From the NCBI GenBank assembly GCA_951406725.2, contig OX597828.1:67642001-67706000 (forward strand): 64,000 nt of DNA, in the 5' to 3' direction. Below are positions 15,418-54,071 of the stretch, piece by piece. Each line of letters opens with the position of its first letter. The first letter of the stretch is position 1. The position numbers and the translations under genes were made by a program. Source of the stretch: Octopus vulgaris. Its lineage: Eukaryota. The notes under the pieces were generated by a model that was given only the letters and a program-made list of their open reading frames with translations, ran no database searches and had not been told where the DNA came from.

Positions 15418-16164
15418 TCATACATATCTGTTTATATGTACGTTGTATGTACCTATGTATGTATATGTGTATATGTGTGTATAAATATGTTTTGGTGTCC
15501 TGTACTCATATATGCGTATATATGTACATGTAGAGGTAGGTACGTACATATATGTTTATATATATAGATCTGACATGCCTCTTTATGGTTGATGTTAATA
15601 CATTTTATAGAAATACAGCGTAAAGTGTTCATTTCCAACCGAAAGTTTCTCGCGTTTACCTTATATTTAAAACACATTTTCGTCTTCTTGTTTTCTATTT
15701 GCCACAAAATGTCAGCTTCGACTAAATTTTCAAATCTTCCATTTTCACCTATTTTCTTAGATACTTATATTCATCTTTTTTTTCATTTTATTATTTCATT
15801 TTTTTTTATTTATATTCATTCATACAGAAATATCTACCTACATATAGACATCTCTCTCATTCTCTTTCTACCTCTCCCCCCTCTCTCTCTCTCTGTATTT
15901 CTTTCTGTGCGGTTATACGTGCTTTCCCATCTCTCTCGAAGCATTCTTGTAGTCTGTTTCTATTGAATTTAGTGAGTGAACTCTGATCATATATATCTGA
16001 TTACCACTACTTGAAGTGTTTCATTCCATTGTATTGACGCCAATAATTGTTTTCATCTGTAACAATAATTCGAATGGGCAATTTTACGTTTTGTATTTTT
16101 CCGAAAATGGACCAGAATTTTAATTGATTTGCTTTTCGCAGGAAGGAAAGTTTCTTGCCGAAGA

Positions 16165-16226
16165 TACGTCTCGCTTTCACCTTCGAAACGTAGAGTAGAT
16201 GAGACCATAGCGACTGAAGAAGGGGC
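16165..16226 (+). ncRNA. Permuted hammerhead candidate (copy within duplicated block)
   Basis: Same motif as 34447-34508, with one difference at the distal end of helix II (aggggc). Confidence 0.65.
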
Positions 16227-16429
16227 TTTTCTTTGTGTTAATTGTCCTGTACTCTATTTTTTTGTTGTTTAAAAAAATGTCCAGTTCCTTTGGTTTGTGT
16301 CTATGTTTTCGTTTCTCATTGTGTTCGACGTCCTTTTGGTGTCTGTACTCATATATGCGTGTATATGTACATGTAGAGGTAGGTACGTACATATATGTTT
16401 ATATATATGCATATGTTTTATTTTATTTA

Positions 16430-16483
<54 letters not shown>

Positions 16484-32218: not shown

Positions 32219-32258
32219 CATATATATCTATACAATATGTTACATTACTCGGTAGTCA

Positions 32259-32321
32259 AGATAAAACTCTGAGTTTCAGATGCCGAAGTGGAAATCCACA
32301 ACACCATCTCTTCGGTTATCT
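32259..32321 (-). ncRNA. Type I hammerhead-ribozyme-like motif (variant core) in PLE 3' region
   Basis: Minus strand: agataa CCGAAGA gatg..gtgg-attt-ccac..catc t GAAA ctc-a-gag T T ttatct. Stem I agataa/ttatct, stem II gatg/catc, stem III actc/gagt. Confidence 0.7.
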
Positions 32322-32505
32322 GGCTATTTGAAAACGTTATGAAAAAATACCGTTAAAAATGAAGGGAAATTACTCTGTTATAACTCTGCTTTGCCTGCGT
32401 ACTTATACATCGCTCGCATTTTTCGTCATAAAAATTATATAAAAATACATAAAAATATATAAAAATATATAAAATCTTCTTGGGACATAACACAGAAAGC
32501 ATGTT

Positions 32506-33548
32506 CTATCCGTTTTCTTTAGGGGACCAAAAACGTAACAGAAATTTAGTCACATGTGGGCATGATCCGAAAAGCTCTGTCCTTGTATTTAGACATGTGG
32601 TAGGGTCTAAGCTGCTTTTCCAGATAAGCCATCTTTCCATGTCGCATAAACCGCACCTTCCGCTGCCGTTAGTATAGGGCTTACATCTGGCCAAAATCTT
32701 CCATTGTATGTTATAATCGACACCTTTATCTCTTAAAGACCAAATATGATTGGATAATTGTGTCGCTTTTCTTTTGTTCCAGTGCCTAAAGCTCAAAGTG
32801 TGGTTATTGAACCTGGCCTTGAAATTACCCTCTGTCAGGCCCACGTATTTCTTCGTCGAAACGGTGTCTTTAGTGCTTATAGAGTTTACGGTAGCTTCAT
32901 ATATGATGGTCTTGGACATGCAAGCTCCATTTAGCGGGCACAATTCTTTATTCCTGCATGAACAGCTGTTTTCTTCTTGTGTTTTTTGTATGTTATGATT
33001 GATTATGTTTTTAAAATTGGTAGTTGAACTAAAACTAATTTTTAAATTGTGTCTATTGAAGAGTTTCCTATAAGCATGGTTAACTGGAAAATGTCTATCT
33101 ATCAGTGCTAGGAAATATTTACCTATATTGAAGGCCACCTCGGGTGAGTAAGGGGGCGTAAACCAGATGACCTTCCTATTTCTATTATTCCTTTTCCTTA
33201 TTGTTGGGCTGGTGATAGGTGTATATTTTATTTTTTCGCTAAAACCACTATCTTTTAAAGCTTTATTATAAACTGGGGCAACGCTATTGAAGATGTCCTC
33301 ATTAGATGAGAGGCTAGAAATCCTCTTACTAATATTTTTAACTAAATTTTTGAATACTATAGGGAGATGGCATGAACCTACATTAATATAACTTAGTCTA
33401 TCATTGGGCTTCCTATAAGGCTTATAAATATTATTATTAAGATCTAAGGAAACGTCTAAGAAATTGACAACCGTCAGGTTAGTGTCTATAGTTATACTAA
33501 GTCCGAAGTGTTTCATTAACTGGATAATATCCTTCCTAAAACGATCTT
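32506..33548 (-). CDS. Penelope-like retroelement ORF (RT C-terminus/thumb + GIY-YIG endonuclease), 5'-truncated, Naiad-like
   Basis: RT end [27 protein letters not shown]; linker [15 protein letters not shown]; [54 protein letters not shown]. About 345 codons without a stop. The N-terminal YI residues of the ORF track are microsatellite. Confidence 0.93.
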
Positions 33549-33774: not shown

Positions 33775-34711
33775 TTTTGGTGTCCTGTACTCATATATGC
33801 GTATATATGTACATGTAGAGGTAGGTACGTACATATATGTTTATATATATGCATATGTTTTATTTTATTTATTAATATATTATATGACGAAACGCACGCA
33901 TCCGTTTTAAGTAAGATTGTTCTTTATATCAAGTTTTGTTCTTGATATTAACTTTGATGCGCACTCTTAACCTTTCTGTCCCATCCCTTTCTCAACCTTC
34001 ATTCTTTGATTTCCTTTTCCTCTACTTAACTTGTCTCTTTCTCTCTCTCATTCTTCACTCTCTCTCTCTCCCTCTTCATTCTTCATGGTTTCCTCGCAGC
34101 CATTCCCCTTCTTCTCTCCCTTTCTCTTGCTCCTCCTCCCCCTCCCGTCGTTGACCCGCGACGAGACTTCCGCTGCTGTCTTTCTGGCCTGGCCCTCTCA
34201 AGGTATGGACGACAATTCTTTTTGCTCCGCTCGTAGTTCGTAAAACATTCCGCGTTCGCAATACTTTTTTTCGTTCGGCGTTAACAGCCCTCCTTATCTT
34301 GTTTTTCCTTGTCCTGTCTTTTACTGTTTATAATTTGTACTGTCGTTACTGTCCTGTTTTTGTTACCTTTTTTTACCCCTCTACGAAAAGATCTCAGAAT
34401 TTTAATTGATTTGCTTTTCGCAGGAAGGAAAGTTTCTTGTCGAAGATACGTCTCGCTTTCACCTTCGAAACGTAGAGTAGATGAGACCATAGCGACTGAA
34501 GAAGGGGTTTTTCTTTGTGTTAATTGTCCTGTACTCTATTTTTTTGTTGTTTAAAAAAATGTCCAGTTCCTTTGGTTTGTGTCTATGTTTTCGTTTCTCA
34601 TTGTGTTCGACGTCCTTTTGGTGTCTGTACTCATATATGCGTGTATATGTACATGTAGAGGTAGGTACGTACATATATGTTTATATATATGCATATGTTT
34701 TATTTTATTTA

Positions 34712-34720
<9 letters not shown>
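33775..34720 (+). mobile_element. ~840 bp terminally redundant non-coding element (PLE pLTR/retrozyme-like) carrying a permuted hammerhead
   Basis: ~105 bp direct repeats at 33775-33880 and 34616-34720. A diverged paralog lies at 46967-47857. Confidence 0.75.
34447..34508 (+). ncRNA. Non-circularly permuted hammerhead ribozyme candidate
   Basis: tacGTC tcgct ttc accttc GAAA cgta [16 nt] agcga CTGAAGA aggggt. Helices: III tacgt/acgta, I tcgct/agcga, II aggggt/accttc. Confidence 0.7.
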
Positions 34721-46840: not shown

Positions 46841-46881
46841 CATACATACATACATACATACATACATACATACAAACATAC

Positions 46882-46966
<85 letters not shown>

Positions 46967-46968
<2 letters not shown>

Positions 46969-47850
46969 GAGGTAGGTACGTACATATATGTTTATATATA
47001 TGCATATATTTTATTAACATATTATACGACTAAACGCACGCACCCTATTAAGTAAGATTGTTCTGTTTATCAAGTTCGCCTTGATATTAACTCTCACGCG
47101 ACTCTGCATCTTTCTTTCTTTCTCTCCCATTCCCTTTTTCGTCTTTTTTCCCTCACTTAACTTGTCTCTTCCTCTCTCTCTCCCCCTCACTGTTCTTCAT
47201 GGTCTCCTCGCACCATTCCCCTTCTTCTCTCTCTTCCTCTTGCTCCTCCTCCCCCATTCCCGTCGTCCATCTGCGACGTACTTCCGTCGTAACTGCTATC
47301 CCGTCCTTTTTCGCCTGCCTTCTAAGGCCACTGGTCGACATCTTCCTCTCTCGTCGTCCACTATAATCCAGCGTTTGCAATACTTTTTTCGTCTGGCGTT
47401 AACAGCCCTTCTTATCTTGTTCTCCTTGTCCTGTCTCTCACTGTTATATATTTATTTTTCCACTGTTTATATATATATTTTTTACTGTTTATATGTTTGT
47501 ACTGTCGTTACCGTCTTGCCTTTTTTTTACCCCTCTGCGACAAGATCTCAGAATTTTAATTGATTTGCTTTTCGCGGGAAGGAATTTTTCATTCGAAGTA
47601 TACGTCTCGCTTTTATCCTTCGAAACGTTTAGTAGATGAAACTTTAGCGACTGAAGAAGGGGATTTTTCGTTGTGCTTATTGTCCTGTATTTCCTTTTTT
47701 TGCTTGTCTTGTTCCTTGGTTTGTGTCTATGTTTTTCGTCTCTCTATGTGTTCGACGTCCTTTTGGTGTCCTGTACACATATATGCGTGTATATGTACAT
47801 GTAGAGGTAGGTACGTACATATATGTTTATATATATGCATATATTTTATT

Positions 47851-47857
<7 letters not shown>
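46967..47857 (+). mobile_element. Independent diverged copy of the ~840 bp terminally redundant element
   Basis: ~55 bp direct repeats at 46967-47022 and 47802-47857. Colinear with 33775-34720 with many substitutions. Confidence 0.75.
47601..47664 (+). ncRNA. Permuted hammerhead candidate, second locus
   Basis: tacGTC tcgct ttt atccttc GAAA cgt [17 nt] agcga CTGAAGA aggggat. Confidence 0.7.
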
Positions 47858-47897
<40 letters not shown>

Positions 47898-48728: not shown

Positions 48729-49310
48729 GGCGGCGAGTTGGCAGAAACGTTAGCACACCGGGCGAAATGCTTAGCACTATTTCATCTGCCGCTACGTTCT
48801 GAGTTCAAATTCAGCCGAGGTCGACTTTGCCTTTCATCCTTTCGGGGTCGATTAAATAAGTACCAGTTACAAACTGAGGTCGATATAATCGACTTAATCC
48901 GTTTGTCTGTCCTTGTTTGTCCTCTCTGTGTTTAGCCCCTTGTAGGTAATAAAGAAATAGGTATTTCGTCTGCCGTTACGTTCTGAGTTCAAATTCCGCC
49001 GAGGTCGACTTTGCCTTTCATCCTTTCGGGGTCGATTACATAAGTACCAGTTACGCACTGAGGTCGATATAGTCGGTTTAATCCGTTTGTCTGTCCATGT
49101 TTGTCCCCTCTGTGTGCAGCCCCGTGTGGGTAGTAAGGAAATTGGCATCTCGTTCGTCTTTATGTTCTGATTTCAAATTCTGCCGAGGCTAACTTTGCCT
49201 TTCATCCTTTCGGATTCGATAAAATAAGTACCAGTTACGCACTTGGGTCGATGTACTCGACTTACCCCTCCCCCGAACTTGCTGGCCTTGTGCCAAAATT
49301 TGAAATCAAT
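48729..49310 (+). mobile_element. SINE family A trimer
   Basis: Head, two young core+tail units, then one old-tail unit. Confidence 0.87.
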
Positions 49311-50397: not shown

Positions 50398-50810
50398 GCG
50401 GTGACCTGAGAGAAACGTTAGCACGTCGGGCGAAATGCTTAGCGGTATTTTGTCTGTCGTTACGTTCTGAGTTCAAATTCCGCCGAGGTCGACTTTGCCT
50501 TTCATCCTTTCGGGGTCGATAAATTAAGTACCAGTTATGCACTGGGGTCGATATAATCGACTTAATCCGTTTGTCTGTCCTTGTTTGTCCTCTCTGTGTT
50601 TAGCCCCTTGTGGGTAGTAAAGAAATAGGTATTTCGTCTGTCGTTACGTTCTGAGTTCAAATTCCGCCGAGGTCGACCTTGCCTTTCATCCTTTCGGGGT
50701 CGATAAATTAAGTACCAGTTACGCACTGGGGTCGATATAATCGACTTGATCCCTTTGTCTGTCGTTGTTTGTCCCCTCTATGTTTAGCCTCTTGTGGGTA
50801 GTAAAGAAAT
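50398..50810 (+). mobile_element. SINE family A dimer
   Basis: Two core+tail units; TSD-like tatagtc(g/t)gagtaaa on both sides. Confidence 0.87.
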
Positions 50811-51115
50811 ATATAGTCTGAGTAAACAAATGATAGATGGCTACGGGTGGAACAGTTTTTAGAATTGAGATACACTCCATGAGAATTGAACCTGCGATTT
50901 ATTCCTGGAAATGTTTCCGTCTTTGTTAAGAGAGGAGACAAAGGACGGTTGCATGTCACAAGTGTACTGTCTTATCCGTCCTCCTCCTCCCATTACTCTT
51001 TACTTCACTTCTATCTCGTCTTTTTCCTTCTTTGTGTCTGCAGCAAAAATTGGGGTTCATTGACACTTTTCTGTCTTCCGCCCGGCCTCCCCCTTTCTCA
51101 TTATTACACATACAA

Positions 51116-53467: not shown

Positions 53468-54071
53468 TATTTCTTTATTACCCACAAGGGGCTAAACACA
53501 GAGGAGACAAACAAGGACAGACAAACGGATTAAGTCGATTATATCGACCCCAGTGCGTAACTGGTCCTTAATTTATCGACCTGAAAGGATGAAAGGCAAA
53601 GTCGACTTCGGTGAAATTTGAACTCAGAACGTAACGGCAGACGAAATACCTATTTCTATTTCTTTATTACCCACAAGGGGCTAAACACAGAGGGAACAAA
53701 CAAGGACAGACATAGGTATTAAGTCGATTACATCGACCCCAGTGCGTAACTGGTACTTAATTTATCGACCCCGAAAGGATGAAAGGCAAAGTCGACCTCG
53801 GTGAAATTTGAACTCAGAACGTAACGGCAGACGAAATACCTATTTCTTTATTACCCACAAGGGGCTAAACACAGAGGGGACAAACAAGGACAGACATAGG
53901 TATTAAGTCGATTACATCGACCCCAGTGCGTAACTGGTACTTAATTTATCGACCCCGAAAGGATGAAAGGCAAAGTCGACCTCGGCGGAATTTGAACTCA
54001 GAACGTAGCGGCAGACGAAATACCGCTACGCATTTCACCCAACGTGCTAAGGTTTCTGCCAGCTCGCCGCC
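53468..54071 (-). mobile_element. SINE family A trimer
   Basis: Three ~185 bp core+tail units with one head. Confidence 0.9.

Follow-up and report, generated by a model that had tools for sequence, protein, structure and literature searches.

How the Octopus vulgaris genome can carry the conserved letters of a hammerhead ribozyme in an order foreign to the usual fold was asked for the locus at 47601–47664 of the window, a stretch of 64,000 nt (GenBank OX597828.1, positions 67,642,001–67,706,000, forward strand) whose positions are used throughout. An earlier note had described it as an independent, diverged copy of a locus near 34.4 kb that keeps a permuted hammerhead core and shows a compensatory change in helix II. 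According to the analysis presented here, about 133 nt at 47530–47662 make up the core of a hammerhead ribozyme that is likely to cleave itself, within a non-coding 836-bp repeat in (TA)n, and a probability of roughly 0.8 is given to this reading of helices and mechanism as a whole.

Host repeat

In a genome search the locus was one of thousands of copies of a mobile repeat. With 301 bp around the motif, 2,381 candidates were found in the 2.8-Gb genome, of which 40 were scored, all being 99–100% identical; the core pattern had 3,209 exact matches in several subfamilies and its reversed control had none. The locus is thus non-duplicated inside the window only, and instead of a lone copy it is, judged by these comparisons, a member of a young subfamily. 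The 47.6-kb and 34.4-kb loci were alignable over about 1.1 kb at 75% identity. Since the scored matches were nearly identical, the differences between the two are differences between subfamilies, and the pair samples two subfamilies rather than two loci drifting independently.

Of the 29 loci that share the 3' end (Table 1), nearly all ended in (TA)n and 20 held at least two 3' ends, counts in which some loci overlap one shared array. Inverted 5' pieces were present at four loci (L027, L045, L074, L075), and no credible ORF was seen in the 836-bp unit. Fixed 3' end, variable 5' truncation, partial tandems, inverted pieces and microsatellite target were all found, and by this layout the repeat is a non-autonomous Penelope-like element as portrayed in the parts of Craig et al. 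(PMC8557442) drawn on here. The unit start has a GTAAG resembling a 5' splice site (47049–47060) and, at about 47150–47212, a branch-site-like hexamer with a pyrimidine tract, reminiscent of the Penelope 5' UTR intron. No splice joint across the unit start occurred in assembled contigs from four sequencing runs of uncertain kind; these covered the unit and gave no ends or informative joints.

The fetched loci fell into four main families with distinct helix sequences, F1 (which includes the window locus) to F4. A generic pattern with GAAA before CUGANGA, which leaves out F1, had 22,987 genome matches against 2,205 for the control; F4 had 386 pattern matches. Of 188 motif matches, those that formed 8 or more of the 10 pairs of helices I and III and were not truncated by a microsatellite gave 87 distinct copies, and 79 after removal of 8 that were rearranged, truncated or of other layout. 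Helix II was not used for copy selection, C11.1 was set by the search patterns, and for F1 and F3 copies a short string served to locate the upstream helix II strand. F3 and F1 share a 3' end, 69% alike across some 210 nt in L121, as well as the hairpin VI loop (L121, L126, L077), so that these families are related despite their differing helix II sequences.

Table 1 Features of the locus, its host repeat and related copies (window positions)
Feature	Position	Strand	Evidence or remark
Segmental-duplicate partner of the 34.4-kb copy; start inside hairpin VI, predicted cut after 16170	16113–16435	+	
Sister-subfamily copy, same layout, predicted cut after 34452	33775–34715	+	75% alike overall
(TACA)n/(TA)n microsatellite, 5' flank (target)	46842–46967	.	
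Non-coding Penelope-like repeat insertion	46968–47862	+	All 29 loci L002–L030 end at 47862
5'-truncated piece, 3' end of one unit	about 46968–47026	+	Head-to-tail with next unit
One full 836-bp unit	47027–47862	+	23/29 loci hold a full unit
Helix V 5' strand CCCCU	47530–47534	+	Pairs with 47658–47662; 4 or 5 of 5 pairs in 50/67 copies (moderate); in MFE fold
Hairpin VI (47535–44 with 47568–77), last base just 5' of G10.1	47535–47577	+	At least 6/7 pairs in 67/79 copies; MFE fold
Helix II 5' strand GAAGGA, G47578 = G10.1	47578–47583	+	Pairs with 47616–47621
Helix IV 5' strand, equivalent of the type-SGC stem I–II 'I' helix	47587–47593	+	Pairs with 47635–47641; in MFE fold
Block S: helix III 3' strand, GUC, helix I strand UCGCU; predicted cut 47606/47607	47601–47611	+	5'-end pile-up, covariation
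Block G: helix II strand UCCUUC, GAAA, helix III strand	47616–47628	+	
Internal loop with conserved AGUA, then helix IV 3' strand	47629–47641	+	AGUA in 33/36 F1 copies
Helix I strand AGCGA and core CUGAAGA (C3–A9)	47646–47657	+	
Helix V 3' strand AGGGG; helix II stretch of the earlier note	47658–47662	+	
(TA)n microsatellite, 3' flank (target)	47863–47895	.	

Core and helices I, II and III

Core positions (C3–A9, G10.1, C11.1, N7 and others) are given in hammerhead numbering. At the locus the blocks run in the order cut site (GUC), GAAA, CUGAAGA. No circular permutation of the cyclic order CUGANGA, GAAA, cut site gives this, which places the RNA outside hammerhead types I, II and III; the 5'–3' block order S, G, C is that of type-SGC. 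CUGANGA, GAAA and an NUH triplet with the A15.1–U16.1 pair were all present, letters which the search pattern required and whose co-occurrence exceeded that in reversed controls. A check letter by letter bore out that the 47.6-kb and 34.4-kb loci agree in GUC (47604–47606), GAAAC (47622–47626), CUGAAGA (47651–47657) and helix I (UCGCU/AGCGA), that the long linker keeps its length of 17 nt and that helix III keeps four of five pairs, U47601 standing opposite U47629. Rfam gave no hammerhead match at 47450–47760 at E values up to 10 and, for the whole window, none among the 150 matches listed of 303, which were microsatellite miRNA look-alikes. The stability of the nested fold of the locus was not unusual (z = −0.58).

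In 20 chosen F1 copies, 95% of the cells in helices I and III were paired, a rate inflated by the selection of copies on these helices; 7 of the 10 pairs changed on both sides, and slid controls gave 21–48%. Between families every Watson–Crick type was seen. The cut triplet was NUH in 79/79 copies, as the script required, and N7 took all four bases.

The partner of the helix II strand in block G was found upstream, 20–29 nt 5' of the cut, where GAAGG (47578–47582) opens with a G opposite C11.1. It paired with the CCUUC side in 74–75 of 79 copies at positions 1–5, the paired fraction being 0.943 against 0.564 ± 0.028 when shuffled, a contrast whose significance is overstated by rows related by descent (as for all shuffle contrasts here). 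All four Watson–Crick types occurred at positions 4 and 5. The helix covaried between families (GAAGG/CCUUC, GGCUG/CAGCC, GGCCG/CGGCC, GGGCA/UGCCC, GAGCA/UGCUC, GACAC/GUGUC, GACGC/GCGUC), and in the four main families the own upstream strand formed 3.9–4.7 bp, against 1.2–2.3 bp for strands of other families. All three hammerhead helices around the core therefore covary, helix II only via the upstream strand.

The helix II of the earlier note lay elsewhere; the strand found here and two further helices are upstream of the stretch it covered. Its pairing aggggat/atccttc can be drawn, and it begins with an A·C mismatch at 10.1/11.1 and includes two G–U pairs. In that register the first pair formed in 3/79 copies and pairing overall was 0.554 against 0.529 shuffled, and the register was rejected. 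The distal pair said to be compensated was paired in 13 of 36 F1 copies, with A·A in 17 and U·U in 3; once aligned, the 5'-side change turns out to be a single inserted base. The note's proposal that a permuted hammerhead fold is under selection stands for helices I and III, which covary within and between families and support it far better than a pair of loci could; the argument from helix II falls. The note had also envisaged that a larger alignment might show the helix II change to be sporadic and the simple ccttc/gaagg hairpin to be the conserved register. As in the first of these outcomes, the helix II evidence was refuted; the hairpin, which pairs through G8–A9, was likewise rejected as the conserved register (56–61/79 at positions 2–5). 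It uses core bases and would sequester the core. With −10.7 kcal/mol for CCUUC with G8-A9-AGG, against −11.6 kcal/mol for the upstream helix, the energies are similar, and the former pairing would be an inactive conformer.

Bridging helices

The strand order is V, VI, II, IV, III–cut–I, II–GAAA–III, IV, I–CUGAAGA, V, and A9 is not joined to G10.1 in the chain. The architecture is a type-SGC fold closed between helices IV and III and opened at A9/G10.1, the gap being bridged by helices V and VI. Comparison of genomic copies establishes the order, the core letters and helices I, II, III and VI.

Stems I and II are linked by 2–6 nt between 5-bp arms, which, with an extra helix, matches the short-linker feature of type-SGC. 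That helix, IV, formed 5.4 bp within F1 against 2.9–3.9 bp across families and was weaker in F2–F4; its pairing accounts for the second conserved GAAA. At the III/IV junction a 3-nt bulge with tandem GA was present in 19/23 F2 and 11/11 F4 copies, and in 26/36 F1 copies AGUA stood opposite GAA. We take the former to be a kink-turn and the latter a bulged-G motif; each would supply the needed bend. The linker of 3–5 nt and helix IV would keep helices I and II next to each other, in a type-SGC-like manner.

Hairpin VI ended on the base adjoining G10.1 on its 5' side in 67/79 copies, compared to 24.4 ± 3.5 in the control. For helix V, formed by the tail after A9 with the strand just 5' of hairpin VI, the mean was 4.06 pairs against 3.55 ± 0.09 shuffled and 2.9–3.6 when slid; its specificity is limited, as F2 5' strands pair F1 tails as well as their own. 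With a first anchoring, in which a greedy search had settled on wrong hairpins, no helix V signal was obtained (2.67 vs 2.67), and the signal after re-anchoring is modest. Together, helices V and VI would dock A9 onto the unlinked G10.1. An upstream CUGAUGA in one copy (L135), which suggested a duplicated core, was explained by hairpin VI and helix II.

Signs of cutting and proposed life cycle

Junctions of F1 copies with (TA)n were counted on the reverse strand, one per locus, in 10-nt windows. The window adjoining the predicted cut on its 5' side had 10, the one adjoining it on the 3' side 139 and the following one 3' 55, with anchors that differ in length and CpG content. For F2 they were 61 and 353 on the 5' and 3' sides, in windows overlapping by about 3 nt, and many listed F2 copies begin at the first base after the predicted cut. 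Among the first 30 loci taken without selection, 9 begin, as judged by eye, in the short zone 3' of the cut. The F1 peak of 5' ends lies mostly 7–9 nt 3' of the predicted cut and off the cut itself; microhomology shapes the (TA)n junctions, AT dinucleotides being favoured, and in many young copies the sequence continues past the predicted cut. The pile-up of 5'-truncated copies just 3' of the site is a strong if indirect sign that suggests cutting in vivo.

In the life cycle proposed, the RNA would be cut after C47606, and transcripts that span a partial tandem would be cleaved one time in each unit. Reverse transcriptase (RT) and endonuclease of Penelope type, supplied in trans and most likely Naiad-derived, would start priming near 47862, at the AT-rich site, with (TA)n as the target. 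Running off the cut RNA near 47607, the enzyme would leave short copies, and partial tandems would result where it reads through uncut or re-ligated circular RNA. The read-through in young copies calls for cutting that is slow, for template switching or for a circle closed by re-ligation.

Alternative readings

A plain type-SGC hammerhead, with helix II made from the strand directly after CUGAAGA in the register of the earlier note or with one extra A, is quite unlikely. Type-SGC ribozymes do cleave in vitro, as reported in the consulted part of Eckert et al. (2023, PMC10085705), and the +1 register gave at least 3 pairs in 47/87 copies, mostly F1 and F3, through G–U pairs; F3 variants keep it, with GAGU against GCUC in two copies (L121, L130) and a two-sided change in a third (L171). 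The canonical adjacent register, however, gave at least 3 pairs in 0/87 copies, so that an intact block C, with a stem II strand directly 3' of CUGAnGA, is absent. The +1 helix has −4.1 kcal/mol compared to −11.6 kcal/mol for the upstream one, its paired fraction is 0.70 against 0.63 shuffled, it is missing in F2 copies with the AAGAAAA tail, and the tail already has a partner in helix V. The weak +1 register may be an alternative conformer in F1 and F3. Lacking the intact block C, the RNA is not filed under type-SGC: by its sequence features it is a hammerhead with SGC order.

It is also unlikely, to a slightly lesser degree, that a hammerhead-derived conserved structure whose cutting is lost or rare acts as an element that RT recognises or pauses at, with the 5'-end pile-up arising from stalling and (TA)n microhomology. 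The read-through copies, the enrichment further 3' (55 vs 10), the AT-rich junctions and the failure to find a tested split-core precedent in the literature searched would agree with this. Yet all catalytic letters are kept across unrelated families in which the helix sequences change freely, two families of different sequence both have the step at the predicted cut, several listed copies begin on the first base past the cut, and the 5' window, with equal microhomology (TATAC), has just 10 junctions. Very unlikely is an active ribozyme built from two tandem units or molecules as an ordinary three-way junction, the order within one unit being incidental. Penelope hammerheads reportedly cleave as dimers, which counts in favour of this, as do the head-to-tail tandems in which the units are found; against it, the cyclic block order is non-standard whatever the number of units joined, and the short linker, helix IV and helices V and VI all make sense within one unit. 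Published consensi of autonomous Naiads in the supplement entries considered (PMC8557442) moreover hold, by eye, one complete copy. The single-unit, split-core hammerhead is the reading retained below.

Naiad link and mobilising enzyme

In 8 of 30 RT loci, F4 lay 1–1.5 kb 3' of a Naiad-type RT on the same strand, with colinear intervening DNA, and the consensi Naiad_Obim and Naiad_Ovul have F4 as their 3' end (supplement of PMC8557442, in part). Naiad_Ovul was annotated 'HHR_half_core' by Craig et al., in whose consulted sections Naiads are reported to be without canonical hammerheads, cephalopod Naiads are called long inactive and the role of hammerheads in Penelope-type retrotransposition is said to be still unclear (PMC8557442). 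By eye, the six-helix layout was seen in three Acropora Naiads and Naiad-2_Movir, and in three more entries of that supplement placed by file position (parts 9, 12, 19). Helix V is free to change in the Naiad entries (by eye: AACUGU/ACAGUU, CGUGG/CCACG, AGAGG/CCUCU, GGGG/CCCC, UCUGU/ACAGA). The layout is not universal. Among the supplement entries examined by eye, those of nematode Naiads have CUGANGA before GAAA, two (parts 16, 17) have cut site, local hairpin, GAAA and CUGANGA with no attached helix II, and the 3' ends of two Naiads lack the plain core.

No Naiad-type RT was found near F1, F2 or F3 copies in 147 sequences, and the repeat had no alignable homology to F4 loci. An N-terminal GIY-YIG and RT ORF in the same element, which define the Naiad clade, were thus found for the related F4 and not for F1. 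The Naiad ORFs found in the genome were broken, and none of 14 Naiad endonuclease loci reached a motif. By analogy, the ribozyme layout and insertion habit held in common point to a Naiad origin of the F1 repeat.

An abundant intact Penelope-like family in (TA)n, with a 784-aa frame of RT and C-terminal endonuclease (L177:1745–4096, also L178–L184), was noted. This presumably Neptune-like element was rejected as the autonomous partner, having no DNA similarity to the repeat and a different 3' end; the family is a candidate source of RT in trans. A Penelope-like fragment at 32.5–33.5 kb was dismissed as partner as well, having its own 3' end. It belongs to a 5'-truncated Penelope-like element on the reverse strand (32240–33546, duplicated near 14.2–15.4 kb) with an RT end plus GIY-YIG at the C terminus (Pfam E 0.024). 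In its 3' UTR there is, by eye, a type I hammerhead of the ordinary kind, its core altered by U4C and without an Rfam match, resembling Hydra-clade motifs in the table of Craig et al. as far as consulted (PMC8557442). The window further contains a tandem segmental duplication of about 18–19 kb (about 3.5–22.7 kb vs 22.8–41.0 kb, 95–99% identity), which could in part be an assembly artefact, a gap of N in the assembly lying near 22.7 kb, and an abundant SINE-like repeat with 184-bp tandem units (536–967, 48778–49264, 50444–50811, 53468–54024 and others).

Comparison with known systems

It is fairly probable that the locus represents a seventh natural wiring of the hammerhead beyond the six thought possible, with a core broken at A9/G10.1 and rebuilt by two docked helices, and that this is the ribozyme which many cnidarian, mollusc and arthropod Naiads seemed to lack, present here in more than 20,000 copies, cutting in vivo and setting the 5' ends of new insertions. 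If so, the core of the hammerhead can bear a break in its backbone at a joint presumed continuous, and non-circular permutations move from environmental RNA to animal chromosomes at high copy number. It would also be answered why Naiads seemed hammerhead-free, and part of the 'half-core' notes would be explained. As truncated copies would record where the RNA begins, what hammerheads do in Penelope-type retrotransposition would become testable from genomes and a simple transcription assay.

In the openly accessible literature searched, Eckert 2023 and Craig 2021 were the only related papers retrieved and no description of this RNA was found, and no break at A9/G10.1 was found in the passages on extra helices or core insertions of PMC13725137, PMC10162972, PMC7936874 and PMC3088659. 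The closest relatives are type-SGC HRIMA-1 and its variants (Eckert et al. 2023, PMC10085705, in part), which have the same order of cut site, GAAA and CUGANGA, all core letters, a short stem I–II linker and an extra helix tying the other sides of stems I and II, here helix IV. In the same sections CUGAnGA is assumed contiguous with its stem II strand (block C), whereas here the stem II strand lies about 28 nt 5' of the cut, helices IV and III are joined to each other, and the chain is open at A9/G10.1 and bridged by V and VI.

Animal non-LTR retrozymes and the Penelope elements with canonical hammerheads have ordinary type I hammerheads in shorter units. Animal retrozymes and type I Penelope hammerheads were reportedly treated by Cervera and de la Peña in 2014 and 2020. 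Animal non-LTR retrozymes (bioRxiv 10.64898/2026.07.22.740005, in part) are likewise non-autonomous, non-coding, tandem, tied to Penelope and equipped with one hammerhead per unit; the present unit differs in its 836 bp and its pseudoknotted split-core fold, and its circle is a proposed one. With Naiads, as covered by the parts of PMC8557442 used here, the repeat has in common the (TA)n target, partial tandems, inverted 5' pieces and a motif near the 3' end; it differs in having no ORF, and the F1 subfamily is very young although cephalopod Naiads are called long inactive. The type-SGC RNAs in the consulted part of PMC10085705 are environmental, none coming from the genome of a known organism, whereas here thousands of copies reside in the chromosomes of an animal.
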